Source: Agitococcus sp.
GTDB lineage: Bacteria; Pseudomonadota; Gammaproteobacteria; Pseudomonadales; Moraxellaceae
DNA: 64,000 bases
Assembly: GCA_030646715.1 (NCBI GenBank)
Contig: JAUSLJ010000034.1
Location: forward strand, 5,423 to 69,422
Direction: 5' to 3'
Shown: in pieces, positions 48,254-61,889 of the stretch
How positions within the stretch are numbered: the first letter of the stretch is position 1
Layout: each line of letters starts with the position of its first letter
Notes under the pieces: model-generated
The model's input: the letters and a program-made list of their open reading frames with translations, nothing else
Database searches by the model: none
Told to the model about the DNA's origin: nothing
Program-made: the position numbers and the translations under genes

Positions 48254-49672
48254 TCACTCATTTTTCTGCGTCAGCACATAAACCGTAGCCCGTCCCTGAC
48301 CTTGGCGTGTAATCAAACCAAGCTCTAACAACTCATTAAATAATGACTTTAACTTTGTTTCACTCAGTTGCAATAACGCCACTCCATCCGCACGGGTCAT
48401 TTTAGATCGCTCCAGTAAGTAGCGTAAAATCTGTTGTTGCTCAACACTTAATCGGGCGTAATCGGGCGCAATCAGACTTAATCGGGCATTATCGTTCGTA
48501 AATGCCACAGAATCTGGCTTTTGCGGGTGTGAATCGGCTGCTATCGGACGGTAAAGCTCCACATCGACAAAATCACCTGACTCTTGAATTTTTGGCTCTG
48601 GCAATCCTTGCGCGACACAGACTTGCCTAATGCGCTGCAAACCACTGCCCCACTGCTCAATATAGCCCAACGCCTTAAACACCCTAGCCAAAACCCGATT
48701 ACGAATCTCCGACCGACCCTCCGCCAGATCTTGCACCGTTAAGGTATTAGGAAACCCACCTGCTGATACGATGTTAAGCACATCGTCATAAATGCCAATT
48801 TTGATATTGCGGCCAAAATTGCTGTAATCGCGGTGGACATAGGCGTTAACTAATGCTTCCCGAATAGCACTCTCAGGGACTTCTAAACTATCAGTCCGTT
48901 GCAAGCCCTTGATCTCACCGCGTAAAAACAAATGGTTTTTAATGAACATTTCACTGTTTTCTAACTGAGCAAACAAATCACCTGTGTATTCTTTACGGTC
49001 TAAAAATACCTGCATATCTGTACCTTTAAACCGCGCACATTGCGTACTGACATGCTCAAAATAGCCTAGTAAAATCAGTAAGCCATAACTAGGGTAATCC
49101 TTACCCTGCACCGTTTGAATCAGCCGAAAATTACGCAACTTGGCTTCGTCCAAGACTTTATGCTGGGCGGAAAAACGCTGTGTTAAGGTGGATAAATCTA
49201 GCGTCGAAAGCTCTACATCCACACACGCTTCTTCATCAAAACTCAGGTGCTGCTTTTGTCGCTCTAGCTCGGCAATATAATCCAAACTGGCTGAGCGATT
49301 ACTTGCACCGACACGAATATAAACCCCGTCTGCTTTGCCTTTACTTTTTAAGAAGTAAGGTAATGATTGCCCACGAAACACCTCAACCATTAAAATCAGC
49401 TTGTCTTCAACATGACTGGTATAAATTTCTGGACGCAAGGTCGGGTGAATTTGCTCATACAAACTTGCATAAATACGGTCTTGGATATCTAAAACGCTGT
49501 CAGCATCCACACCCACCAATGAACCATTATCATCAACGCCAATCAATAGCTTGCCGCCACTGGTATTGGCAAAGGCAATCACGGTCTTGGCAATTTGTTC
49601 AAAGCGTGGCAGTTCGCGCTTAAATTCCAGCGTTTTACTCTCGCCCTGAGCAATCAATGACAGAACACTCAT
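48254..49672 (-). CDS. AlbA_2 (Schlafen-like 'divergent AAA') + HATPase_c_4-like + wHTH protein
   Basis: The N-terminus 'IAQGESKTLEFKRELP...VIAFANTSGGKLLIGVDDNG' is the classic AlbA_2 signature. 'REALVNAYVHRDY' is typical of the following ATPase-like domain. The C-terminus is wHTH-like. Confidence 0.8.
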   Translation of the reverse strand: MSVLSLIAQGESKTLEFKRELPRFEQIAKTVIAFANTSGGKLLIGVDDNGSLVGVDADSVLDIQDRIYASLYEQIHPTLRPEIYTSHVEDKLILMVEVFRGQSLPYFLKSKGKADGVYIRVGASNRSASLDYIAELERQKQHLSFDEEACVDVELSTLDLSTLTQRFSAQHKVLDEAKLRNFRLIQTVQGKDYPSYGLLILLGYFEHVSTQCARFKGTDMQVFLDRKEYTGDLFAQLENSEMFIKNHLFLRGEIKGLQRTDSLEVPESAIREALVNAYVHRDYSNFGRNIKIGIYDDVLNIVSAGGFPNTLTVQDLAEGRSEIRNRVLARVFKALGYIEQWGSGLQRIRQVCVAQGLPEPKIQESGDFVDVELYRPIAADSHPQKPDSVAFTNDNARLSLIAPDYARLSVEQQQILRYLLERSKMTRADGVALLQLSETKLKSLFNELLELGLITRQGQGRATVYVLTQKNE

Positions 49673-49979: not shown

Positions 49980-50354
49980 TCAATCATCGCATGGAAACAT
50001 AATCGTTAATACAGGTTCGGCATTATCGCCAGGGCCAATATCAATAATCACGTTATGCATACTACTCACAGGCAAGTTTTCATCGCCGTAGCTAAAATTA
50101 ACACGTCGAGCATTTGGACGCTGTTTACTGGAGTAGATAGCCTCACTACAACAACGCGCAAGAAACGCAGTCAGTCTCAACGACTCAATCTCAGCATTAC
50201 CACTTTCAATAATGCTCGACCACAATGTTTGAGTAACCACCGTCGGTAGTCTAAAACCAACCTGACAGGCGCGCTCAGTGACATCAATCAGAACACCATC
50301 AGCAATAGCATTCGCTCGTGTATAACAGGACACAACCTCAAAATCTTCAAACAT
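49980..50354 (-). CDS. Conserved-looking small protein (124 aa), function unknown
   Basis: Clean ORF. 'VSCYTRANAIADGVLIDVTE' resembles small proteins I associate with plasmid/ICE leading regions. Family not verified. Confidence 0.45.
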   Translation of the reverse strand: MFEDFEVVSCYTRANAIADGVLIDVTERACQVGFRLPTVVTQTLWSSIIESGNAEIESLRLTAFLARCCSEAIYSSKQRPNARRVNFSYGDENLPVSSMHNVIIDIGPGDNAEPVLTIMFPCDD

Positions 50355-50407: not shown

Positions 50408-51103
50408 TCATATTTTGATGGTGTCCGCACATAAATCGACAATGGAAATCACAGAGGTTTTTTGCCGCTTGATAAACGGCAGCCCTTCCAGTTTTGGCAG
50501 TGGCGCATCACCATGATGCGTCACCCACTGCTTCCGTAATCGACTAAATAGCTTGCCTACCTGCACACGCAGACCACGAAACATCGGCAGCCATAACAGG
50601 AGTTTTTTCGCATCCTCTAATGCTTGTTCGCCTGTTTTGGCACGTTTGGCGGTATCGTCAATTTTACTCTCAAAGACTTTATATTGACTGTCCACCAATC
50701 GCCATGTCCACGAACTACCACCGCCTGAATCACTAGGTTTAGTAAGCTGCACTAGCTCGAATCCCATGAGTGATAAACGCTCTTTTTTCTGCGTTAGGTT
50801 CTTTTTACCTTTTTCTAAAAGGTGGAAGTCGTTGTCACCATCGGTGGCCAACAAAATCCAAACCAGCTTTTTACGCAGCTTAACCCCTAAAAAATGGACA
50901 TTGCCGTACCCAGCTTTTTTACGCCGCGTGCGCTGCATCGGTGAAATATCGACATCATAAGCGGCATTTATCTTGTCAGAAAAGGCACTGACTTTGATGT
51001 AATCCGCTTCTTCAAAAGCACCTGAAACATACCAAATATAACCATCCGTAGCGTGCTGTTGAACACGTTGCAGGAAGGCATTTATGTTATCAAATAAAAC
51101 CAT
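50408..51103 (-). CDS. Hypothetical protein (231 aa)
   Basis: Clean ORF. No motif recognised. Confidence 0.45.
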   Translation of the reverse strand: MVLFDNINAFLQRVQQHATDGYIWYVSGAFEEADYIKVSAFSDKINAAYDVDISPMQRTRRKKAGYGNVHFLGVKLRKKLVWILLATDGDNDFHLLEKGKKNLTQKKERLSLMGFELVQLTKPSDSGGGSSWTWRLVDSQYKVFESKIDDTAKRAKTGEQALEDAKKLLLWLPMFRGLRVQVGKLFSRLRKQWVTHHGDAPLPKLEGLPFIKRQKTSVISIVDLCADTIKI

Positions 51104-51178
51104 ATTAAATATCTATTTATTAACCTATTCAATAACATAGCTTAACATATTCGAAGGTTATTTAATAATGAAAGATTC

Positions 51179-51210
51179 CAATTTCTAGGGGACATCTCCC
51201 CTAGAAATTG
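51179..51210. promoter_or_regulatory. Perfect 14-bp-arm palindrome CAATTTCTAGGGGA-CATC-TCCCCTAGAAATTG
   Basis: Read directly from the sequence. It lies about 75 bp upstream of the 231-aa gene start and at the 5' edge of the ORF-free structured segment. It could be an operator or an RNA hairpin. Confidence 0.4.
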
Positions 51211-51264
51211 ATTAAAATGGCGATGACGGTAAGCCATACCGTTGAGGCCAGCCAATGCTTGTTA

Positions 51265-51297
51265 CGAGTTGAGGCTGCCACCTCAACTCGGTTTTTT
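51265..51297 (+). terminator. Intrinsic terminator / attenuator-like hairpin
   Basis: CGAGTTGAGG-CTGCCA-CCTCAACTCG followed by GTTTTTT. A second copy of GTTGAGGC lies 25 nt upstream (51241-51248), allowing alternative pairing. Confidence 0.55.
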
Positions 51298-51309
51298 CCG
51301 TTCACAACT

Positions 51310-52294
51310 TGGAGCTTACTCTGAGTTAAATGCGGGTTGCCAACCCGCATAGTCTTATGCCGAAGCCGCATGCTTGTAATTAAGCTGGTGCGGCTACGTC
51401 GGGCGCTGGAAGGTGTAACTCCTTCCTTCGACCCAATCTCAGCGCACTGCGCCGAGACGAGGATTGGGCGACACGGAAACGGGTCTCTAGGTAACTAGAA
51501 TCACCCTGTTGACGACTGTGTGAGTAATCAATCTCACCCAGGGGTGGCAGGAAACTGTCGAACCTGTGACCACACGAGGGCTGCTGAGGGCGTAGAAATG
51601 CGTCAGGGACATGAGGAGAAATCTGGACTGTCTGGTACCAGCAAGAGGGGCAACCCCGCTGGATCGTTGTATAGCTCAACCGTGTAACGGGGACTCATAG
51701 AAGTCTCTGTGGGAATATGATGCGTATGCTGTCGCGGAGCGGCAGTAAGCCTGTGGTGACGACGATTGTGGGAGGTAAGCGAGCCGTTTTGGAATCTTGG
51801 GCCGCCGAAAACCTATTGGGTGAGGGGGAATACCCCAGCATATCCTGCAATCTGAGCCAGTACGCTAAGTATTGAACGTTGTCATCTAACGTGGGAACCA
51901 CTGACGGCCAATGAAGATGGGTGGCACCATCGAGGCGCAAGTGGGGGAGATTCACTGAGTAGGGTTTGAAATCAGGGGCAGACGGGCTGTTGTGTCCTTT
52001 GAGAGTACCGAAAGGTGGAGGCGTAAGCGTAGTGAACGGTTAAGCGCGTGGCAGCGCAAAACTGAGGAATTGCACTGGGAGTGGCATCTCAGTGCAATCC
52101 TATCGTGGAAACGGTAGGGTTCGGTATGGTTATTGGTACGAGTGATTCTCGTAAAAAATTCAATTAGGCCGTGGCTGGCCTCTGTATTGGCAGTACCAAT
52201 TAATTTCGGGCTTCTTCGTTTAGTCAAGGGCTTAATTCTACGGCGTGGAAAACCGTAACCCAAAGCCCCTCTCATTTCGAGAGGGGCTTTCTAT
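51310..52294 (+). ncRNA. Candidate large (~1 kb) structured non-coding RNA, class unknown
   Basis: The plus strand has no ORF of 60 aa or more across 51104-52657. The minus-strand ORFs fall in three frames and are not protein-like. The plus strand is G-rich. There are many stable hairpins, including GNRA-capped ones (51591-51602 CGUA-GAAA-UGCG; 52006-52017 UACC-GAAA-GGUG; 52099-52118 CCUAUCGU-GGAA-ACGGUAGG). Recurring GUGGCA/GUGGCU apical loops occur at 51916-51931, 52044-52057, 52069-52098 and 52166-52181. The segment ends in a strong terminator at 52262-52294. The 5' end is not defined. Confidence 0.5.
52262..52294 (+). terminator. Rho-independent terminator closing the structured segment
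   Basis: AAAGCCCCTCTC-ATTTC-GAGAGGGGCTTT followed by CTAT. The stem is a 12-bp GC-rich perfect match. Confidence 0.6.
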
Positions 52295-52347
52295 ACCTAT
52301 GGCTTGAAGAAAGTTATTTAGTCGTATATTTATAAATCAGTTATTTA

Positions 52348-52451
52348 TTGACTCTAGTTGAATATCCAATTATTATTTCATTTCGACACTGGCTTCTGCT
52401 TAGTAGTTGAAATTGCATCATAAAGGCCAGTTTACTGGCCTTTATTTTTTT
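52348..52451 (+). ncRNA. Candidate small RNA (~70 nt) with its own sigma70-type promoter and terminator
   Basis: TTGACT (52348-52353), a 17-nt spacer, then TATTAT (52371-52376). No ATG occurs downstream. The terminator AAAGGCCAG-TTTA-CTGGCCTTT + ATTTTTTT lies at 52422-52451. Confidence 0.4.
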
Positions 52452-52657
52452 GGTTATAAAAACCACTTAAATTATTATCACTATTATTAATAGAGTCTTA
52501 TTTATAATATATCTTAGCGCAAGATGCTATACTATAAAAAATATCAAGCTCTTGGTCGAACACCACATTTGGTGACAAATGCGTTGCCCTTCAACAACAT
52601 TCACAATAGTGGGAAACTATTAACTCTGTAATTTAAGCATGCTTAAATGTTAATCGC

Positions 52658-53749
52658 CTAATTTAATATTATCCCAAATTCTCTTTGGTATTTAGATGTG
52701 ACTTGATAGCCATGCTCCACAAGTCTATCAAATTCTGACTCACTTAATCGTTTAAGAGTCGTCGGAAAATTAGCTGAAAATAAAGCTGACGGACAGGGCC
52801 GCATTTCGCTAATTGGCTCTCCAATGTAAAGATATGCTCCTCTATTTACACCTTTCAAAAGATAGGCCACAAAAGTTCTAACTCGCAAAGCACGCGCTTG
52901 GTCAGACATGATGTCATTAACCCTCTTCATTCGCCACGGATTCAACGCTCCAAGTGAGAAACCCTGAGCCAGAGGAGCTCCTGCATCCGAAACTACGAGA
53001 GCTACTTCGCTTGGAAGATTGCCCTTTACCTGTCCTTTACCTGCGTCAAAGAATGGCTCCAACCCTAAATTATCATAGACTCCACCGTCATATAAGTGCA
53101 GTTTCGGATATAGGGGAGTAACAGGTTTAGCTTGCTCTGGAGGTTCATTCCACGGCCTTTTATGCCATTCATAACTTGAAGCATCAATCACAAGTGGCCC
53201 AATTCCACCTGGAAATGCTGCCGAAACAGCAAGAGCATTTGCCAATGGGAAATGACTGGAAGAGGCATAACCCAAGACATAGTCCCCCAGATCTTTTTGC
53301 TTAAAACGGAACCGTTTTCCTGTCTCGGCTGTTGTCCCATTGATTGACCACTCGGGCGTCACTGGTAGATCAGCAAGCGTTCCTGAAACCTGCCAAGACT
53401 CACGCAATGCCATGGCGACCAAGTTGGCACGTGACAGCAAAAACCGCCAATTAGAGGGATGACGCAATTGACTTATGGCATCATTCATCAAACTCCGAGA
53501 ACACAACTTCTGTCGCAAAGTCGGCATGACTAGCTCTTGGAACACTTGAGATGTTGGCCATTGCAAGCTCGTTTCTTGCAGTATGAGCCCCAAAATCAGA
53601 CTTCCTCCCGATACCGTGGAAATATGACTCACTTGTTCCAAAGCCTTATTTTCTGCCAGCCAACGGAGAACCCCCAAATGGAAGGCCATTGCTCTTATTC
53701 CTCCGCCTGACAAGGCTAAAGCAATAGGCATATTTTGCGCTTCGCTCAA
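52658..53749 (-). CDS. Patatin-like phospholipase
   Basis: It has the oxyanion motif 'LSGGGIRAMAFHLGVL', a nucleophile-elbow-like 'TVSGGS' and the catalytic Asp motif 'YDGGVYDNLG'. Its start overlaps the upstream gene stop by 4 nt. Confidence 0.85.
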   Translation of the reverse strand: MSEAQNMPIALALSGGGIRAMAFHLGVLRWLAENKALEQVSHISTVSGGSLILGLILQETSLQWPTSQVFQELVMPTLRQKLCSRSLMNDAISQLRHPSNWRFLLSRANLVAMALRESWQVSGTLADLPVTPEWSINGTTAETGKRFRFKQKDLGDYVLGYASSSHFPLANALAVSAAFPGGIGPLVIDASSYEWHKRPWNEPPEQAKPVTPLYPKLHLYDGGVYDNLGLEPFFDAGKGQVKGNLPSEVALVVSDAGAPLAQGFSLGALNPWRMKRVNDIMSDQARALRVRTFVAYLLKGVNRGAYLYIGEPISEMRPCPSALFSANFPTTLKRLSESEFDRLVEHGYQVTSKYQREFGIILN

Positions 53750-55992
53750 AGCACCACCCCCTGATAAACACAGACTTCACTCTCGCTCACGATAAGTGAG
53801 AATGCAGGTAGACCGTCCTCCCTCATACCCATCGCCAACTCAGTAAGCTGAGCGAGATCATCATTACTGAGCCTTGCTGGGCATCCAGGCGGATGGCTAT
53901 GCCACTCACCAATATAACCAACAACTCCTGCTGTGAGTTGTGCAACCTCCATCAATCGTTCTGGCACGCCTACAACTCCACGCTGAAATGACGCTTCAGT
54001 AGAGATGCTGTCCTCTGGAGCTACACAGGCATCCACAATCACAATCACTTTTTCTGTTAGATCGTGATAGCCCAGCAATACCCCACCTGTTTCGGAGGGT
54101 AACTTTTCAGACCGCATCTGCCAAAGCTTCTGTTCAAGCCCCTCATCAATAAAGACTCTGAATACACCATGCTCTATATATCGATTTGCTTGTGTCTCTA
54201 CTGAGTGAAGCTCTACTGCGCCAGTCTGAGGATTTCTCTGCCAAATCCTGATAAAAGAACCTTCCAACTCTGAAACTTGTTGTACCTGCTCTGCAAGACA
54301 AGCTGCATGAACTAATACGCGAGAATAGGGCAATGCCATCGAAATATCCCGACAACTTGCGCCACTCCAATAAGTTCCCAGATGGCCATTAAGATGGTTC
54401 ATTCCCCAACCACTATTTATCACCGCTCGATAATACTGCGCCTCTAGTGACAATAAGCGGATCAAACGCTCACTATCTTCTGCCAATATCACTGCAGCAT
54501 TACCATCTGGAGTAATAAACACAGAGATATGGCGTCCTACCTGGTCTACTTTGCTAATTGCACGCGGGAAATCCAAGCTTGCCGATGCATCCACAACAAG
54601 TTGAGCTTTTTGAAGGGCCGCGACGACTTCTTGCGTCAGCGATGTAGCATCCGCATTGATTGGTGTAACTACCGCAGCTCCGTGTGTCGTGGCTTCGCAT
54701 AACTGAGACACTACCTTTACTTTCAGCTCCCCAACTTGCGCTCCAAACGCAGTATGCCGAACCAAGTTATGAGGTTTAATATGGTCATTATCAATGACAC
54801 TCCACTCTCCCCATCCGCAGCGAGTCCATATATTGAGCATGGCACTACCAAGAGAACCAACACCGACAAGCACACCTTTGGGGCCTTCTGAACTAACGCC
54901 AGACTGTATACGTAATCTAGACTTGCTATTAAAACTCAATACCTCTATAGCTGATACGACCTTCGCTCTCCATCCTGCATTTTGGCTCTCATCAACATGC
55001 CCCAAAACATCCGCATAAAACTTATTCCCTGAAAATAAATATGCCCCAATTGCCTCTCCAATCTCTCGACGATCAGCATGAAAAAAGAAGGCTTTATGTT
55101 CTATTCTCTCTTGGAAATTTCCAGCAGCCCTAACAATAGGCGTCCGTAGCAAAAGTATTACTCTTAGGGCCTGTCCTTTGGAAGCCAACCCATTCGCTGT
55201 AATGTTTTCAAGAAGACTTTGGCGTAGGGGCGACAGCACATCTATCCTTTTGGATGCCATTTGGTCTGCCAATTCCCCTAAATTTGATGGCAGCCGTTCC
55301 ACTGCTCCATGAACAACTGGTAGTGTATCCACTGTAATAATGGAGATATCCATACCAAGCTGCTGCCCATCTTTAGGTAAAGCATCTAAAACAAGAGACA
55401 GTCTTCCACCCGATCGCTCAACAACCCTGCTCACTTGGTATGCCATTCTAGGATCATTGCTAATTTCATCAAAATTCCAAGGAAGGATAAGCTCATAAGG
55501 AGTCATAAAAAATAGCTGCTCTACAGGCTGGTCTGCTGCATGCAAATTTTCATTAGCAGTTGATGTAAGCCACCATTGCAGTTGACGCAAAAACTTTTGA
55601 GGGGTCCACGTCCGCAACACGGTTGCTTTCGGCCCAAAATAAAGGCAAAGGCTCAATGGATTACCAAGAGGTGTGGAGTTCATATGCGGCAATGCAGGGA
55701 AATCAGTCCTTAAAGCCAGCACATCAACCAATTCACGGTCATTTTTATCCACCACCAGTGCAAACCGTTCTGGATATTGAATCCCAAGTCGATTGCCTGG
55801 CGGAAAGCCATCACAAGCGACCTCGACAATCAGAGCCTCTTTTTCTACTTGACCATCCTTCGTACTAAAGAGAATTTCTAAGAGCTGACAGTCTGGATTA
55901 TTACTAACTGCGTCTATTAGGCCTTTGGTTCGATTAAAAGAGGGTTGCCCATGGGGCAACACCTCCATATTATCAAGTGAGAAATAGCTCAT
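53746..55992 (-). CDS. E2-like + E1 (ThiF-like) + JAB/MPN triple-fusion protein (Cap2+Cap3-like)
   Basis: The N-terminal 'LPHMNSTPLGNPLSLCLYFG' matches the UBC-like HxN...C motif. The central 'VLVGVGSLGSAMLNIWTRCGWGEWSVIDNDHIKPHNLVRH' is a ThiF/E1 Rossmann fold. The C-terminal 'ETGGVLLG ... GEWHSHPPGCPARLSNDD' is a complete JAMM motif (E...HxH...S..D). Confidence 0.85.
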   Translation of the reverse strand: MSYFSLDNMEVLPHGQPSFNRTKGLIDAVSNNPDCQLLEILFSTKDGQVEKEALIVEVACDGFPPGNRLGIQYPERFALVVDKNDRELVDVLALRTDFPALPHMNSTPLGNPLSLCLYFGPKATVLRTWTPQKFLRQLQWWLTSTANENLHAADQPVEQLFFMTPYELILPWNFDEISNDPRMAYQVSRVVERSGGRLSLVLDALPKDGQQLGMDISIITVDTLPVVHGAVERLPSNLGELADQMASKRIDVLSPLRQSLLENITANGLASKGQALRVILLLRTPIVRAAGNFQERIEHKAFFFHADRREIGEAIGAYLFSGNKFYADVLGHVDESQNAGWRAKVVSAIEVLSFNSKSRLRIQSGVSSEGPKGVLVGVGSLGSAMLNIWTRCGWGEWSVIDNDHIKPHNLVRHTAFGAQVGELKVKVVSQLCEATTHGAAVVTPINADATSLTQEVVAALQKAQLVVDASASLDFPRAISKVDQVGRHISVFITPDGNAAVILAEDSERLIRLLSLEAQYYRAVINSGWGMNHLNGHLGTYWSGASCRDISMALPYSRVLVHAACLAEQVQQVSELEGSFIRIWQRNPQTGAVELHSVETQANRYIEHGVFRVFIDEGLEQKLWQMRSEKLPSETGGVLLGYHDLTEKVIVIVDACVAPEDSISTEASFQRGVVGVPERLMEVAQLTAGVVGYIGEWHSHPPGCPARLSNDDLAQLTELAMGMREDGLPAFSLIVSESEVCVYQGVVL

Positions 55993-57152
55993 ACCGACTT
56001 ACCGGCACGCACGGGCGCTGCCGCCGCCAAAGCTGTTGCCCCAACCACAGCGGAACGAATCCACGATACTCCGCCATACGTTACGTCAAAAACAAGCGGC
56101 TCTGGATGTTTTTTGTTTGGTGTCTCCATTGTTACCAATATCCGGCGTCCTCCCACCTTATCAAGGTAACGTTGATAAGTATTGTAAGCCTGTACATGTG
56201 GAGGTTGTATTTGCAAGTAGGCATCCTTATCTTTCTCAATCGGGCGACTAGAGACTACCTCATACGCCTGCCGCTTCCCCATCAAGAGAAGGTCTTTAAC
56301 TAAAGGCTTGGGCTCCGTTTCGTTATCCCCTTTGGTGTCGCTGAGTGCCAAATAACTACAATGATGTGGCACATTGAAAAGATCCCAAGCAAGGCGATCA
56401 TCATTTCCGTGGTAACGTGTAGTAGATACTATGTCTTCAAGAACAGACCATTCAGCGTCACCAACAGCAAGATAATCGTATCGATTGCCTTCAGCCTCAA
56501 ACCGGATGTTAAAAATCAACGACGCATCGTTACGAACAACATCTCCATCTGGACAGTGCTTGATAAAAGGAGAATGACAAAAGAACTCTACGCCATCTTT
56601 TTCCAAGGTAAAGCCAGAAACAATAGTTCCTGCATCAACAATTAGATGATCACGTGCCGTAGCCGCCTCGCCCCTTTCTTTAAGTTTACGCTCTAACAAC
56701 TCTGCCAAAGCTGGAGGCTTCGAAAATACCCGAATCCCCTTTCCTTCTAAAAGTCGATGCTGAGCCTCTCGACGTAGAATAGCAAACTCATCAGACTGCT
56801 GATCCCTGCAAACATGCTCTATCACCATTGCTGCAGGCACCCAGAGTTCGTCAATCTTAATGCGCCCATTTCCTTGGTATTTCAGTGCATGATTCAGCTC
56901 AAAAAAGTCAGTGCTGCCAGAAATATGGTCAGAGTCAGCATGAGTAAAAACGACCACATCAAAATTGTCACGACCAGCATCTTTGAGCTCTTTTTTAAGA
57001 CGAGCCTTTAGATCAATAACAGGCGAAGTTGGATCTTCACCTTTCAATTGATGACGATAATCCATAAGGATCCGGCGTTTGTTGGAAAGGATAATTTGGC
57101 TTGTATCGCCATTACCCACTGGATAGAAAAGAATCTGATGTTTAGTTGACAT
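55989..57152 (-). CDS. Metallo-beta-lactamase-fold hydrolase (ComEC/Rec2-type motif), first gene of the operon
   Basis: 'LFYPVGNGDTSQII' and 'VVVFTHADSDHISG' (HxDxDH variant of HxHxDH). It is 387 aa with a ~100-aa C-terminal extension ending '...AAAAPVRAGKSV'. Confidence 0.75.
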   Translation of the reverse strand: MSTKHQILFYPVGNGDTSQIILSNKRRILMDYRHQLKGEDPTSPVIDLKARLKKELKDAGRDNFDVVVFTHADSDHISGSTDFFELNHALKYQGNGRIKIDELWVPAAMVIEHVCRDQQSDEFAILRREAQHRLLEGKGIRVFSKPPALAELLERKLKERGEAATARDHLIVDAGTIVSGFTLEKDGVEFFCHSPFIKHCPDGDVVRNDASLIFNIRFEAEGNRYDYLAVGDAEWSVLEDIVSTTRYHGNDDRLAWDLFNVPHHCSYLALSDTKGDNETEPKPLVKDLLLMGKRQAYEVVSSRPIEKDKDAYLQIQPPHVQAYNTYQRYLDKVGGRRILVTMETPNKKHPEPLVFDVTYGGVSWIRSAVVGATALAAAAPVRAGKSV

Positions 57153-57823: not shown

Positions 57824-58720
57824 ATGCTCATTGACAGGATGGAGTTAGCAGATATAACAAAACCAGGTCCTATGGCAGCTGCCGTGCTTAAGCAAGTCAG
57901 GGAGCAAAATAATGGTGTACTCCCCATTCCTATCCCGATAGAAGAGATTGCTTATGGAGCAGATATTTCAGGAATTTCCCCCATACAAACACCAGGCTTT
58001 CAGGGAGCGCTCATCATCACTGATGGCGGCTCTATCGGCCATATCCTGAAAAATGCCAACAGTCCCATCACCCGGCAACGATACACCGTTGGACATGAGC
58101 TGGGTCATTGGCTATTGCCATTGCACTCTGTCAAAACCAAAGAACTCTACTGTACATCCGTACAGATGACTCGGGACTTCTCCAAAAACTTATCTCCCGC
58201 TGAAAGGATTGAAGTCGAAGCCAATATGTTCGCAGCTGAGATTCTTTTACCTGACAGAGAGTTCAAGAACGATTTAAGACCTTTTGGAGAGCCATCTCTG
58301 CAGGCACTTCTGGCATTATCTGAAAAATTTGAAGTTAGTAAGCTCGCCACTGCTAAACGCTATACAACGTTAAATGATCACCCATGCGCAGTTGTCACAT
58401 CGAAAGACTGCCTCGTCCAACACATCTTTCGTGGCCGAGACTTTCCTTCTTTGGGCCTCAAGGTTGGATATCCTCTTCCTCCAAGGAGTCATTCATTCAC
58501 ACTCAAGAGGACGCTGAAGAAATGCAGCGAAATCGTACTTGCTAGATGGGAGAACTGGCTTAAAGATCAGCCTCATGCCACTGCTGAATTGTACGAACAA
58601 GTGCTCCATCAGGCTGATGGTTACATAATGACTTTACTGTATCTGAATATGGATAACTGTCCTGATGAAGATGAAGAGTTTATTGAGCGCAGCTCCATCT
58701 GGAATCCGACATTGCGGTAA
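57824..58720 (+). CDS. ImmA/IrrE-family zinc metallopeptidase (CapP / ImmA-like)
   Basis: The HEXXH motif is in 'YTVGHELGHWLLP', with 'EVEANMFAAEILLP' downstream. Both are typical of COG2856 ImmA/IrrE. Confidence 0.85.
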   Translation: MLIDRMELADITKPGPMAAAVLKQVREQNNGVLPIPIPIEEIAYGADISGISPIQTPGFQGALIITDGGSIGHILKNANSPITRQRYTVGHELGHWLLPLHSVKTKELYCTSVQMTRDFSKNLSPAERIEVEANMFAAEILLPDREFKNDLRPFGEPSLQALLALSEKFEVSKLATAKRYTTLNDHPCAVVTSKDCLVQHIFRGRDFPSLGLKVGYPLPPRSHSFTLKRTLKKCSEIVLARWENWLKDQPHATAELYEQVLHQADGYIMTLLYLNMDNCPDEDEEFIERSSIWNPTLR

Positions 58721-58955
58721 ATGTATTGCAGCACACCGCTAACTGAAAAGAGGCAATCGCTCATATTTCGACAACAGCTGTCAATTCTTCAATTGTAAGT
58801 TAAGTATTGTTCATGACAAAATCAGCTCATCAATCAAAACTCCTAACTTGATTTCATTCGAATCACAACCAAAACTAGCCATTCCTGCTGCAATAACACA
58901 TGATGAATGTAGGCCTCTGGAGCGCAATTTCAATTCACTCCAAAAGGCTTTATCT

Positions 58956-59846
58956 ATGGCTAATCATGATTTGTACCAAGAAGTCACTAACACTTTCATC
59001 GCTTTATTAGAACAAGACGGTATTCAATCTTGGCGTAAAGCATGGAAAAACATCTCCAGCTCACCTATCAACATCATTACAGGTACACAATATCGTGGCT
59101 GGAATTGGTTTTCTTTAACCTTAGCTGCTGGCCCTCGCCCCAATCAATGGGCGACGTTTAAGCAGGTTCAAAGTCAGAATGGTCACATTCGCAAAGGATC
59201 GGCTGGTGTTAAAATAGGCTTTTATACACCACGCGAAAAAAATGAGTCAGGCGACGAGCAGACATCTGACGAAGCTTTAGCAGAGAAAAGCCATCGGTTT
59301 ATTTTTCGCATCTACCATGTGTTTAATGCCTTGGATATTGAAGGTATTACCGTTCCCTCCCCTATTCCATTTGAAGGCAACGCGATTCAGTCATTAATGA
59401 CAGTTTGCTTGTCTAAGCTCAAGAAAGATGGCTTGGTATATAAACGTGTCGGAAATAAGGCTGCCTATTGGCCTAAGCAAGACATTATCACTATGCCTGA
59501 AGGAAGCTTTGATAGTCCTCAAGATTACTGCGCCATTCTTGCCCATGAAATGACTCATGCGACAGAGTCACGTTTAGGTCGCCGTGAGAAAATAAATGAC
59601 TGGTTTCCAGACTTCGATGAGTCCTATGCTTTTGAAGAGCTGGTCGCTGAGCTAGGTGCTGCTTTTATTTGCGCTCATTTTAACATTAAGGGCGATTACG
59701 ACAATCATGCCAGCTATTTGCATAGTTGGCTGAAGATACTTAAAGGTGACAAATTTACGTTGTATCGTGCGGTAAAACTAGCACAAGAAGCTGCTGATTG
59801 GCTTCTTGATCAACAAGTAGCACCTGCTTTGCAGGAAGCTGCTTGA
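58956..59846 (+). CDS. ardC: ArdC-like antirestriction protein (ssDNA-binding N-domain + zincin metalloprotease)
   Basis: I chose the start at 'MANHDLYQEVTNTFIALLEQ...WRKAW' because it matches the usual ArdC N-terminus. The ORF track opens at 58848. The metalloprotease motif is 'AILAHEMTHATESR'. Confidence 0.85.
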   Translation: MANHDLYQEVTNTFIALLEQDGIQSWRKAWKNISSSPINIITGTQYRGWNWFSLTLAAGPRPNQWATFKQVQSQNGHIRKGSAGVKIGFYTPREKNESGDEQTSDEALAEKSHRFIFRIYHVFNALDIEGITVPSPIPFEGNAIQSLMTVCLSKLKKDGLVYKRVGNKAAYWPKQDIITMPEGSFDSPQDYCAILAHEMTHATESRLGRREKINDWFPDFDESYAFEELVAELGAAFICAHFNIKGDYDNHASYLHSWLKILKGDKFTLYRAVKLAQEAADWLLDQQVAPALQEAA

Positions 59847-59866
59847 TGGCTTGATTTCTTAACTCT

Positions 59867-59903
59867 AAAACCCCGAAGCGTTTGCTTTGGGGTTTTTCTT
59901 TTT
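59867..59903 (+). terminator. Rho-independent terminator (copy B of the repeated hairpin)
   Basis: AAAACCCCGAAGCGTTTGCTTTGGGGTTTTTCTTTTT is identical to copy A (48161-48194) except for one extra G in the loop. Confidence 0.75.
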
Positions 59904-60458
59904 GTGGCGGATTTCTGCCAAAAATATAGATTATGCGTCAGATGACAGATAAGGTGTCATTGCCGCTAATGATAAAACAAGGGCTTAGGAAACCAAACGA
60001 CACGAAGGAATGTCATTTTCATTTATTGATCTAAATCTTGTGCCTACGCTAATTTAGAACAAAGGGAAGTGACGAAGAAGAGCTACCAGTCGTGATCCAG
60101 AAATTTGTCTACGGCCGCCTTCCATACTCGGCTTGCTTTTTCCTGTTCCGTTGTACTCCATTCATGTTGAACTATGCTTGGGACTCAACATAATAACCTT
60201 CTGATAAGCACTGATCATTGCAGCTTCACTGGTATCAGATGTTCCAAGTACATTCTCCAATGTTATGGTGGCTTCTCAGTTTGGCTTGATACACCTATCA
60301 TTCTCATATAGTCTAAATGGCACAATATTAATAGAAAAAAGTGGCGCAGTGCCACGGAAAATATCATTTTATCAACGTGTGCATAGGGAAATATATGAGT
60401 GCAGTCTGTCGTTTTTTCCATAGGCTTATTGTTAAAGGTACAGGTGCTGGAGTCTTAA

Positions 60459-61889
60459 ATGGCGTTTGATGCATCTCCTTCTTGGAGCGGTTTCAATTAT
60501 CAGGGGAAAGTTGCTCTTTATTATGCCTTGAAGCTGATAAACGATCATCCTATAAGCCAAGACTTATCGAATTACAGCTTGATGCTTGAGGCCACCGAGG
60601 ACTTCGAGATTCAGCGTGACGGTGTTTCACTCTCTTATCATCAGGTGAAAGCCTATGCCCAAAGTTCATATAGCACATACTCCAATGCTCTCTTTGGAGT
60701 TCTTCTAGAGCTGTATAAATCGCCGAGTGTGACAGGATGGATTCATACTTGGAATGCTATAAATTCTAAGCCTGACTTTGCGGATCTGACCAGCTCAATC
60801 CAAGATGATATGAATATTGTCATAGCGCAGTATACAAACAAAAAGCCTGGCGAAAAAGGAATAGTGCTGGACGATGCAGCGTCTGATAAAAAAGGAATAA
60901 CTAAGCAAGCAGCAATTATCAGGGCCGCTATTCCAGGGAAAACCTCGGATCAATTGAGAGATATACTTAATGAAATAGTTCTAAGACAAAATGACTGCCT
61001 TAGCCGCTTTGCTGCATATGAATACGATGATGGCAATAAATTTTGTGATCTAACTGAAATAAATATAAAAATAAAATTCGAGATATCTAGAGCCATGAGT
61101 GCTAGAGGAACTGTCGTTACGCAAGAACAGCTTGAGAAATGTTTCAACTACTTCTTAGGGTATATAGACGAACACATCATCTGTAGGCATGAAAATAAAA
61201 CAAAAACAAGCTTGCCAATAGGCTTCCAAGAAATAGTTGTAGCCTTGAGGACTGATCATGAAGATATTGGCAGTGAATATCTAGTCTATAAATTTAAAGA
61301 TCAATTTGCCTATTTAATAGACGAGTACCTAGGCGATCCAGATGACTACACAGAGCCAGCGGAAGAAGTATATTGCAATCTAATGGAGGCAAGAAAACTT
61401 CTTCTAGGCCTTAGCCCAAAAGATCTCTGGAAACATTATCGTAGTTTTTCCCCACAGATTTACCTTCAACATACACACAATACGGTTAACGCTCTTTCGA
61501 CAAACCCTGAAGGTATTCGGCACGTACTATTAAAAATCCTTCATGCAATTAACTTCGCTTGCGCATCACACAATGCCACAAAATACAAACTAACCTATCG
61601 AACGACAACATCGCCATATCAATTTTATTTGCCAACAACCATAACAAGCACTGCCCGTGTAAGCCAAATAGTTAAGAAAATTACAGAAAACCCAAGTATG
61701 AATGAGATTTTATTTGAAGTTGAAAATCTTATTTATGGAGGTCAAGAACGATTCTCTTTTTCTCCTTCTTTGATAGTGCGCACTGAGGCACCAATAGCGG
61801 ATGGAGATGATACTCGCTCAAAAAGGGACGAAATTTTAAAGGAAATAACACTAGTGCCTATATCAATTGCAAAGGATTTATTAACTTAA
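60459..61889 (+). CDS. lmuA: Lamassu LmuA, Cap4-type (DUF4297) nuclease domain protein
   Basis: The N-terminal 'SGFNYQGKVALYYALKLI ... LEATEDFEI...YHQVKAY' fits the DUF4297/Cap4 PD-(D/E)xK pattern. It is followed by a small gene and an SMC-like ATPase. Confidence 0.7.
   Translation: MAFDASPSWSGFNYQGKVALYYALKLINDHPISQDLSNYSLMLEATEDFEIQRDGVSLSYHQVKAYAQSSYSTYSNALFGVLLELYKSPSVTGWIHTWNAINSKPDFADLTSSIQDDMNIVIAQYTNKKPGEKGIVLDDAASDKKGITKQAAIIRAAIPGKTSDQLRDILNEIVLRQNDCLSRFAAYEYDDGNKFCDLTEINIKIKFEISRAMSARGTVVTQEQLEKCFNYFLGYIDEHIICRHENKTKTSLPIGFQEIVVALRTDHEDIGSEYLVYKFKDQFAYLIDEYLGDPDDYTEPAEEVYCNLMEARKLLLGLSPKDLWKHYRSFSPQIYLQHTHNTVNALSTNPEGIRHVLLKILHAINFACASHNATKYKLTYRTTTSPYQFYLPTTITSTARVSQIVKKITENPSMNEILFEVENLIYGGQERFSFSPSLIVRTEAPIADGDDTRSKRDEILKEITLVPISIAKDLLT

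Follow-up and report, generated by a model that had tools for sequence, protein, structure and literature searches.

The window, by which we mean the whole 64,000-nucleotide stretch of Agitococcus sp. DNA analyzed here, carries between positions 51179 and 52294 a segment that we identify, with a probability of about 0.93, as the plus-strand gene for a circularly permuted (CP) group II ribozyme. This class is already known: it was described in 2021 by Roth, Weinberg, Vanderschuren, Murdock, and Breaker (iScience 24:103431, PMC8637638), and cryo-EM structures of CP group II ribozymes exist (bioRxiv 10.64898/2025.12.30.696962). The first-pass annotation, made from the sequence alone, had proposed a non-coding RNA of large, ornate form, read from the plus strand of a mobile element, and this is confirmed; the ribozyme gene and the neighboring acpG gene sit on a conjugative element. 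Its further statement, that the RNA is of unknown class and not a group II intron, proved wrong, and the class was missed because its domain order is permuted and because it is absent from Rfam. The window copy displays the homology, architecture, covariation, and gene linkage of the family.

Family membership was judged by string identity between homologues and the rows of the published alignment (PMC8637638) and by alignment of these homologues with the window. The published rows share with the homologues of the window RNA the strings GCGCUGGUACGACUA-CGAC-GAGCGCUGGACG...UGUAACU...CGUCCUUCGACUC--AAUC and UGGGCGACACGGAAAC. In two types of homologue (L003 and L004), the strings of domain 5 (D5), domain 6 (D6), and the 5' splice site are those of the published rows, and the same homologues align with the window, with nhmmer E values of 1e-168 to 1e-209 against a common profile. 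Plasmids of Ralstonia pickettii are members of the published alignment (PMC8637638), and R. pickettii plasmid-type lineages and the window align over their full length. With one 19-base probe, the element was retrieved from 71 species-level genomes. The Rfam search that had been suggested for the segment gave no match for the whole window at gathering thresholds (ROOL, GOLLD, OLE, raiA, HEARO, RNase P, and tmRNA included), and over 50900-52800, with E values of up to 10, it returned small matches at chance level and no group II model. The segment had no match among phage records (blastn), and homologous plasmid regions in Escherichia coli RefSeq records carry no annotation.

The domains of the RNA follow each other in the order P1-P2-D5-D6-linker-D1-D2-D3-D4 (Table 1). 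In other words, P1 and P2 open the RNA at its 5' end, and D5 and D6 come next, ahead of D1-D4. The base of D3 falls in a variable, poorly aligned region, and the boundaries of D3 and D4 are those given by position and the minimum-free-energy (MFE) fold.

Table 1. Features of the ribozyme locus (positions are those of the window).
Feature	Positions	Strand	Remarks
acpG homologue	50408-51103	-	231 aa; start codon at 51103; divergent from the ribozyme
Near-perfect palindrome	51178-51211		Arms of 14-15 bp; acpG-ribozyme intergenic region
P1 hairpin	51265-51290	+	Loop CUGCCA (51275-51280); from sequence; corresponds to P1 of the published model
P2 hairpin	51330-51350	+	Loop UUGCCAA (51337-51343); covarying stem
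Domain 5	51364-51395	+	AGC triad 51364-51366, five base pairs, UG bulge 51386-51387, upper stem, loop GUAAUU 51376-51381
Domain 6	51401-51434	+	Bulged branch-point adenosine A51431 (by homology)
Linker ("exon")	51438-51465	+	Predicted 28-nt excised circle; hairpin 51443-51453
Domain 1	51466-51893	+	Closed by CACG 51472-51475 / CGUG 51890-51893
Domain 2	51898-51944	+	Base helix 51898-51902/51940-51944; apical hairpin 51916-51931, GAUGG-GUGGCA-CCAUC
J2/3	51945-51950	+	Purine-rich junction GGGAGA
Domain 3	51951-52036	+	GAGUAG at base; assigned by position, MFE fold, and published order
3' hairpin, D4 region	52044-52057	+	GCGC-GUGGCA-GCGC; holds the partner of the P1 loop
Lineage-specific 3' extension	52069-52181	+	Outside the conserved core; 12-bp hairpin with GUGGCA loop 52069-52098, GGAA-capped hairpin 52099-52118, AGGCC-GUGGCU-GGCCU hairpin 52166-52181
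Terminator-like hairpin	52268-52286	+	Weak U tail; likely 3' end of the transcript (predicted)

Covariation across the 46 non-redundant homologues that form the comparison set is very strong. RNAalifold predicts 105 pairs, 78 of them with compensatory changes; 88.2% of the cells are paired in the domain model and 35-47% after sliding of the partners; and the covariation score of 0.413, which none of 500 shuffles reached, compares with 0.135 for shuffled alignments. In D5, the AGC triad is followed by the pairs C51367-G51392, G51368-C51391, C51369-G51390, A51370-U51389, and U51371-G51388 and then by the bulge U51386 G51387, which matches the published D5 (AGC and a UN bulge with five pairs in between; PMC8637638). 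The D5 helix is paired in 99.6% of cells, with compensatory changes in seven of its 11 pairs, while U51371-G51388, G51372-C51385, and C51373-G51384 are invariant. In D6, A51431 is bulged within GGGCG/CG(A)CCC and is an A in 46/46 sequences, and the lower stem changes from G-C to A-U in eight sequences and to C-G in two. Two blocks of D1, UGGGCGACACGGAAACGGG and CUAACGUGGGAA, are invariant. Many helices within this domain covary, as does a long-range helix (A3 columns 256-267 with 788-797); its closing helix CACG/CGUG is invariant in the homologue set and is CGCG/CGCG in the published Thermus rows. The base helix of D2 is 94% paired and covaries in all five of its pairs, and the apical stem is 89% paired. 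The GGGAG of J2/3 is invariant in the 46 sequences, and a purine-rich J2/3 is present in the published model (PMC8637638). RNAalifold also offered two pairings that we rejected: the CC of the P2 loop with the GG of GGGAGA, because the published model and the pairing statistics of P2 and D2 favor a loop-loop contact, and UCG(A)CCCA with the invariant downstream UGGGCGA, because the D6 stem shows compensatory changes.

Two pseudoknots join the permuted parts. In the first, UGCCA of the P2 loop (51338-51342) pairs with UGGCA of the D2 loop (51922-51926); pairing occurs in 88% of cells (17-68% after sliding of the partners), and a G-C pair becomes A-U in five sequences of one lineage. In the published Thermus rows (PMC8637638), it is P2 that has GUGGCA and D2 that has CUGCCAC, the reverse of the window RNA. 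In the second, GCUGCCAC in P1 (51274-51281) is complementary over 8 nt to GUGGCAGC near the 3' end (52048-52055). The P1 loop and its 3' complement change jointly between lineages (CUGACCAC/GUGGUCAG and GCGCCAAC/GUUGGCGC), and this comparison of lineages supports the pseudoknot qualitatively; a generic shuffle test of the complementarity gave 6.4 versus 6.0 nt and is too permissive. The P1-3' end pseudoknot is less widely distributed in the family (PMC8637638).

These pairings bear directly on the idea that the segment encodes a large ornate RNA of unknown class, for instance a sponge that titrates a protein with repeated GUGGCA loops. The loops themselves are as first described, as are the hairpins capped by GNRA tetraloops at 51591-51602 (GAAA), 52006-52017 (GAAA), and 52099-52118 (GGAA); the P2 hairpin, formerly placed at 51335-51356, exists but is better drawn as in Table 1. 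GTGGCA or its complement occurs five times in the 1.1-kb segment, where about 0.6 copies are expected, a local enrichment of about 8-fold; the 64-kb window as a whole, with 36 copies, is not enriched. Such an enrichment would suit a sponge, as would the lack of any Rfam 15 match even at E values of up to 10 and the two additional GUGGCA/GUGGCU hairpins of the 3' extension, which have no obvious partner loop. However, the RNA matches a published family in both sequence and architecture, no protein that binds such loops is known, and the GUGGCA loops of D2 and of the 3' hairpin have partners in the same RNA that change together with them across lineages. The complementarity of the 5' hairpin loop, CUGCCA(C), to the GUGGCA loops, already noticed in the first reading, is that of the two pseudoknots. 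The protein-sponge idea thus found no support, and we regard an RNA of unknown class as very improbable. The first two hairpins of the 3' extension are kept with compensatory changes in a Nitrospira metagenome-assembled genome (L031) and are identical in another locus (L022), and it is a possibility that the unpartnered GUGGCA loops mediate RNA-RNA contacts between molecules.

That the gene is a plus-strand RNA gene is supported by its invariant G-U pairs, its positive GC skew, and its folding energy. The segment has a GC content of 0.52-0.55, against 0.31-0.45 in the flanks, and a GC skew of +0.2 to +0.32 (a G-rich plus strand), whereas the skew is negative in all the neighboring genes, which lie on the minus strand. 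Folding of 51263-52120 gave an MFE of -351 kcal/mol for the plus strand, against -303 +/- 7 kcal/mol for shuffled sequences (z -6.5), so that the recommended comparison with shuffles came out in favor of structure; the minus strand has an MFE of -277 kcal/mol (z -3.7). The same features weigh against a DNA-level plasmid element, such as an origin of transfer, a single-strand initiation site, or a replication origin. Homologues do occur on plasmids, including RepL plasmids of 3-4 kb, and in 15 loci the element lies just upstream of a type IV coupling protein gene, as might be expected of such an element. Nevertheless, the strands differ strongly, and this asymmetry, the invariant G-U pairs, and the GNRA loops indicate a folded RNA of the plus strand; homologues act as catalytic RNAs in vitro and are expressed in a native host; and replication of pTT8 is unimpaired after deletion of its ribozyme gene. 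A DNA-level role in place of an RNA gene is therefore hardly likely, and a ColE1-like primer RNA, an oriT, and a single-strand initiation site were each rejected on the G-U pairs, the strand asymmetry, and the family match.

The plus-strand transcript probably starts near 51225 and ends near 52290. The palindrome at the acpG side overlaps a promoter-like site, with a -35 element at 51189 and a -10 element, TAAAAT, at 51213-51218; at many loci, the same intergenic place holds palindromes that are lineage-specific. At the other end, the hairpin of the "strong" terminator claimed at 52262-52294 is present, but its U tail is weak and 52420-52445 is a better terminator. P1 is also terminator-like, with a U run (51292-51297) on its 3' side. 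It was considered as a conserved attenuator and rejected, because the U run is limited to the lineage of the window (two of 48 P1-like hairpins).

Since D5 and D6 precede D1-D4, both splice sites would lie inside the RNA, 28 nt of linker apart. A 3'-splice-site-like AU is found at 51436-51437, six bases past the branch-point A, and a 5'-splice-site-like GGGCG at 51466-51470 (GGGCGAC from 51466), where the canonical motif is GUGYG; this G-for-U variant is found also in published rows of the same subfamily. The two motifs are thus internal and in reversed order, with the linker between them, and linkers range from 13 to 54 nt in the subfamily. The published model and the circle mapped for the Comamonas testosteroni RNA served as guides for placing the sites, and the exact positions are accordingly putative. 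An ordinary, non-permuted group II intron without an ORF, or a fragment of one, would also contain D5, D6, and D1-like features. In such an intron, however, D5-D6 would not come before D1 with internal splice-site-like motifs in reverse order; moreover, the RNA contains no ORF for a reverse transcriptase, and no Rfam group II model matches at E values of up to 10, so we consider this reading still less probable than the two above. A decayed protein-coding gene is the least credible of all: three minus-strand ORFs of 86-107 aa (51380-51679, 51695-51955, and 51952-52275) overlap the region as originally reported, and one GenBank record has a minus-strand hypothetical protein annotated over a homologous region, but the ORFs are in different frames, it is base-pairing that is conserved and not codons (78 pairs with compensatory changes), and the region is conserved across phyla with invariant single-stranded blocks. 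On the plus strand, no ORF of at least 60 aa exists in the segment, again as first described, and those within 51104-52657 are all of 55 aa or less.

For the CP group II ribozyme, we propose the following course of events. The catalytic D5 and D6 stand at the 5' end behind the helper hairpins P1 and P2, with the scaffold D1-D4 downstream, and the loop-loop staples (UGCCA of P2 with UGGCA of D2, and GCUGCCAC of P1 with GUGGCAGC) hold the permuted domains in position. In the first step, the 2'-OH of A51431 would attack the 5' splice site at 51465/51466; in the second, the freed 3'-OH of U51465 would attack the 3' splice site at 51437/51438. The outcome would be the release of a 28-nt RNA circle (51438-51465) and a 2'-5' branched RNA of about 0.8 kb. 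By analogy, the window copy should back-splice as do the members that are active in vitro: circles and branched products have been obtained with the RNAs of C. testosteroni, A. radioresistens, P. naphthalenivorans, T. intermedia, and T. thermophilus, and homologues are expressed in a native host. Efficient circle formation is not guaranteed, because the linker has 28 nt (13-15 nt in some relatives) compared with 86 nt in the C. testosteroni RNA, and hydrolysis or branching without circularization is possible.

The gene linkage points away from the convergent MBL/E2-E1-JAB/patatin operon, to which a functional link had been suspected. Across 66 related loci, no conserved link with the patatin/E2-E1-JAB operon was seen, and the conserved neighbor is the AcpG homologue on the other side. 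In 52 of the 66 loci, or 52 of the 55 with enough upstream sequence, the gene directly upstream, in divergent orientation, belongs to the AcpG family. Among the 15 largest neighbor families, AcpG alone includes a gene of the window; the start codon of the window acpG is 162 nt from P1. The divergent, adjacent arrangement has been described for TTHC007/AcpG (PMC8637638), and on sequence grounds we assign the 231-aa product to this known partner of the family: a profile of 28 family members matches the published AcpG row 2000969279/22-267 with an hhalign probability of 98.7% (E 2.3e-16), and the window protein alone matches the same row in BLASTP with E 8e-10. The published family and the window gene product share a size of about 230-260 aa, divergent encoding next to the ribozyme gene, the sequence motifs YEL, WTWR, and LPxFRG..Q, and the lack of any detectable homologue among characterized proteins; we found no difference between them. 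The family comprises about 790 clusters at 50% identity in a library of 1.84 billion proteins. The 231-aa protein matches nothing in Pfam, NCBIfam, PHROGs, PADLOC, or the PDB sequence profile. Its AF2 model has a pLDDT of 93, and Foldseek against PDB and BFVD gave TM-scores of 0.3 or less and no hit with an E value of up to 0.001, so that the fold predicted by this model is apparently new. Two other leads were dropped: a resemblance to viral capping enzymes or polymerases was weak and treated as noise, and a relationship to RepL of small plasmids rested on a tblastn hint (E 0.27-0.5), with RepL clustering separately.

In our view, AcpG would serve the ribozyme as a dedicated cofactor that binds RNA, in a maturase-like role. 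A physical interaction is only a proposal, because some genomes with a CP group II RNA have no acpG, as the authors of the family have reported (PMC8637638); a complete 3-kb E. coli plasmid likewise carries the RNA without acpG. With low confidence, we suggest that the active product is the large branched RNA, which is conserved, and not the poorly conserved circle, and that it serves the host plasmid or conjugative element. It is conceivable, although doubtful, that the RNA makes a sequence-guided attack on competing nucleic acids (by reverse-splicing-type chemistry of the branched product) or controls plasmid maintenance. Such roles would fit the near-obligate linkage to acpG in the subfamily, the apparently new fold of AcpG, and the fact that this RNA takes up between a quarter and a third of some plasmids of 3-4 kb. 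Taken together, the 71 genomes, the acpG linkage, the AcpG fold, and the share of plasmid sequence turn the idea of an AcpG-RNA complex that functions at the plasmid level into a hypothesis that can be tested, without establishing it.

As the class is known, the main value of these results is correct annotation. Because neither the ribozyme gene nor acpG is covered by an Rfam 15 model, PGAP annotation, or a Pfam family, such loci are misread as empty intergenic DNA, spurious ORFs, or a "novel RNA". The survey also adds context to the question of what CP group II ribozymes do in cells: in the subfamily of the window, acpG is almost always the divergent neighbor, and the AcpG model is confident, with no detectable structural relative.

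Among known systems, the large RNAs OLE, ROOL, GOLLD, and raiA are like the window RNA in size and in their dense conserved structure, and ROOL and GOLLD share its frequent residence on mobile elements; the Rfam search gave no sequence or structure match to any of the four. They come mainly from Gram-positive bacteria, and none of them is known to be a ribozyme. With the CP group II ribozymes, the window copy shares the order P1, P2, D5, D6, linker, and D1-D4, the D5 and D6 signatures, both pseudoknots, the plasmid bias, the divergent AcpG gene, and near-identical conserved blocks, and no family-defining feature differs. Apart from its shorter linker, its own features are the terminator-like P1 and the 3' extension. 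With canonical group II introns (IIA, IIB, and IIC), it has in common a homologous catalytic core, consisting of the AGC triad and bulge of D5, the branch-point adenosine of D6, the purine-rich J2/3, and the D1 scaffold, and the same two-step phosphoryl-transfer chemistry is expected. Unlike these introns, which run from D1 to D6 between terminal splice sites and usually have a reverse-transcriptase ORF in D4, CP group II RNAs have permuted domains and internal, reversed splice sites, encode no reverse transcriptase, and have no evident route of retromobility; their products are a circle and a branched RNA, whereas canonical group II introns yield ligated exons and a lariat.

The ORF-poor segment of about 1.1 kb at 51179-52294 is a typical new member among circularly permuted (CP) group II ribozymes, with the usual partner gene alongside. 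Its first core helix is built like domain 5 of a group II intron (an AGC base, five pairs, a two-base bulge in the 3' strand, and an upper stem that is short and capped), yet it is located at the 5' end. CP group II ribozymes are ~900-nt RNAs encoded by chromosomes as well as plasmids in Deinococcus-Thermus, Firmicutes, and Proteobacteria; in them, P1 and P2 are followed by D5-D6-D1-D2-D3-D4; their splice sites are internal and reversed, with a variable linker between them, and pseudoknots connect P2 with D2, P1 with the 3' end, and D3 with D1 (Roth et al. 2021, PMC8637638). AcpG (TTHC007), a protein without known homology, is encoded upstream by a divergent ORF of ~260 aa (PMC8637638), and later work reported cryo-EM structures for the Comamonas testosteroni representative. 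Rows of the published Stockholm alignment (PMC8637638) share strings with the E. coli-type and Burkholderiaceae-type homologues found here, and Ralstonia pickettii plasmids that share the coupling-protein context of our loci are on the published member list. The first-pass annotation had proposed an RNA of unknown class; the alignment rows and the AcpG match described below place the segment in a known, structurally characterised one.

Domain map of the ribozyme copy in the window
Feature	Position	Strand	Remark
P1	51265-51290	+	loop CUGCCA
P2	51330-51350	+	loop UUGCCAA
D5	51364-51395	+	AGC 51364-51366, UG bulge 51386-51387
D6	51401-51434	+	branch A51431, invariant 46/46
Predicted 3' splice site	after AU 51436-51437	+	
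Linker	51438-51465	+	28 nt
Predicted 5' splice site	before GGGCG 51466	+	
D1	5' splice site to 51893	+	closing helix CACG/CGUG
D2	51898-51944	+	apical loop GUGGCA
J2/3	51945-51950	+	GGGAGA
D3	51951-52036	+	assigned by position; base-helix region aligns poorly
3' hairpin	52044-52057	+	GUGGCAGC complementary to P1 loop

That the segment is a genuine large structured RNA had been correctly observed. The stretch separating the 231-aa gene (50408-51103) from the patatin gene (52658-53749), both on the minus strand, has no plus-strand ORF of at least 60 aa, the three minus-strand ORFs (51380-51679, 51695-51955, and 51952-52275) differ in frame, and all the hairpins and loops previously listed are found in the sequence. 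The GC content is 0.52-0.55, against 0.31-0.45 in the flanks, and the GC skew is +0.2 to +0.32, being negative in every neighbouring minus-strand gene. The plus strand of 51263-52120 folds with an MFE of -351 kcal/mol (z -6.5 relative to dinucleotide shuffles), and the minus strand with -277 kcal/mol (z -3.7). GTGGCA does recur: it or its complement is found five times in 1.1 kb, versus ~0.6 expected from the window-wide density.

The alignment of 46 non-redundant copies supports this architecture. RNAalifold predicted 105 pairs, long-range helices included, of which 78 show compensatory double changes. In the domain model, 88.2% of cells are paired (99.6% in D5), compared with 35-47% when the partners are slid, and the covariation score of 0.413 (0.135 in shuffles) was reached by 0/500 shuffles. 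Both the lower stem of D6 and the base helix of D2 covary. Loop pairing between P2 and D2 is retained at 88%, one lineage having A-U in place of G-C, and the P1 loop varies between lineages in step with its 3' complement. In a Burkholderiaceae plasmid lineage (L004, L005, L011, L019, and L072), the D5 triad is AGU for AGC, with a compensating U-A pair, and the P2-D2 pairing is UACCA/UGGUA, not UGCCA/UGGCA. The GUGGCA loops and the CUGCCAC complementarity noticed at first pass thus represent the family pseudoknots.

Rfam 15 gave no match in the whole window at gathering thresholds and no meaningful match over 50900-52800 at E up to 10. A blastn search found no phage relatives of the segment; it found plasmid stretches 66-80% identical to it in E. 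coli (3 kb and about 30 kb), Azotobacter, Ralstonia, Paraburkholderia, Halomonas, Thiothrix, and Pandoraea. In the records inspected, these regions are unannotated gaps of 1.2-1.8 kb, except for one Halomonas record in which a minus-strand hypothetical protein is called across the region. When the window and six plasmid gaps were aligned, 750-800 nt proved strongly conserved, with invariant blocks and, by eye, compensatory changes. One invariant 19-mer, TGGGCGACACGGAAACGGG, used to probe a species-representative genome collection, retrieved 71 loci, mostly in alpha-, beta-, and gammaproteobacteria and some also in Deinococcus, Nitrospira, and other groups; about 64 have the full element. The copy in Moraxellaceae bacterium AER2_44_116 (L022) is essentially identical to that of the window.

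We clustered the flanking ORFs of 66 loci. The dominant neighbour is the family of the 231-aa protein, present at 52/66 loci and almost always directly upstream and divergent; 11 of the 14 loci without it simply lack upstream sequence, giving a linkage of 52/55. A published AcpG sequence matches the family profile (hhalign, probability 98.7%, E 2.3e-16) and the 231-aa protein itself (BLASTP, E 8e-10). Searches of the latter against Pfam, NCBIfam, PHROG, PADLOC, and PDB sequences gave no match, its named homologues in a large protein collection are all "hypothetical", and an exhaustive profile search of the family yielded 790 clusters at 50% identity. Its AlphaFold2 model is confident (pLDDT 93, pTM 0.87), and Foldseek found no neighbour for it in PDB and BFVD. 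The useful outcomes are the annotation, the near-obligate acpG linkage in this subfamily, and a confident but orphan AcpG fold. Among small plasmids, acpG is present on two from Halomonas (L006 and L009, about 4.2 kb) and absent from one of E. coli (L001, NZ_CP075648.1, 3064 bp); one contig name in this set reports very high coverage (cov_2790).

After AcpG, the commonest neighbours are a downstream type IV coupling protein (15 loci) and replication proteins; in the five Burkholderiaceae plasmid loci, the coupling protein gene lies ~0.5 kb downstream of the ribozyme on the same strand. Since the window encodes F-type conjugation genes (TraU, TraN, TraG, and a DsbC-like protein) and ArdC, the carrier of the ribozyme is a conjugative plasmid or integrative element, and the stretch around it is rich in defence-type genes. 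Convergent with it is a minus-strand operon at 52658-57152 (patatin, E2-ThiF(E1)-JAB fusion, and metallo-beta-lactamase-fold genes), which together with 57824-61889 (IrrE-like M78 peptidase, ArdC-type anti-restriction protein, and ABC-3C CTD1/Cap4-nuclease protein) is the defence/anti-defence cargo region of this F-type conjugative element. The functional link to that operon, raised at first pass, was not borne out: apart from AcpG, no window gene has its family among the 15 largest sets of neighbours, and conserved adjacency therefore does not extend to the patatin and E2-E1-JAB genes. The mobile-element setting is in keeping with the family's plasmid bias and indicates no specific link to defence systems. 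Immediately past acpG are genes for DUF6573 (49980-50354) and for a Schlafen AlbA_2 + HATPase_c_4 protein (48254-49672); PADLOC matched the second of these weakly to pAgo-associated and SIR2-type defence proteins.

In the spacer that separates acpG from the ribozyme, a near-perfect palindrome with 14-15 bp arms (51178-51211, CAATTTCTAGGGGA-CAT-CTCCCCTAGAAATTG) overlaps a promoter-like -35 element and may be an operator or bidirectional hairpin; many related loci carry long palindromes of differing, lineage-specific sequence at a comparable position, with arms of 8-16 bp versus ~6 in shuffles. P1 followed by GUUUUUU (51265-51297) resembles an intrinsic terminator ~40 nt past the predicted start. 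Of 48 P1-like hairpins in related loci, only those of the window and L022 have this U run, so it is no general trait of the family, but it could attenuate transcription in the window's lineage. Past the conserved core, a 3' extension (52069-52181) adds two hairpins whose GUGGCA/GUGGCU loops lack a free UGCCA loop to pair with in the same RNA; intermolecular RNA contacts or alternative pairings are possible. A Nitrospira MAG (L031) retains the 12-bp and GGAA-capped hairpins, which show compensatory changes there. Within the AT-rich spacer that follows the ribozyme, a good promoter-like TTGACT-17-TATTAT (52348-52376) precedes a strong terminator hairpin and U run (52420-52445), which, from sequence, could specify an independent transcript of about 60-70 nt; Rfam gave only chance-level matches for 52348-52445 (STnc40, E 3.6).

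By homology, the 2'-OH of A51431 would attack the 5' splice site, and the freed 3'-OH would then attack the upstream 3' splice site, releasing a 28-nt circle and leaving a branched RNA. This two-step chemistry has been demonstrated in vitro for representatives of five species, and by analogy we infer catalysis by the window copy. The authors of the CP group II study consider the circle an unlikely functional product, being poorly conserved (PMC8637638); in line with this view, our tentative candidate for the active species is the large branched RNA, probably together with AcpG. The plasmid pTT8 replicates without its ribozyme gene, though complementation of the deletion by a copy on the chromosome is possible. 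Linkers in the window's subfamily are short, spanning 13-54 nt (median about 24), so circularisation may be inefficient and the hydrolytic route of a 2026 preprint may matter. Several members have linkers of only 13-15 nt (e.g., L053, L036, L032, and L039); circles that small may form with difficulty, raising the question of which products such members make. The linker of the window copy is 28 nt, whereas that of the tested C. testosteroni ribozyme is 86 nt.
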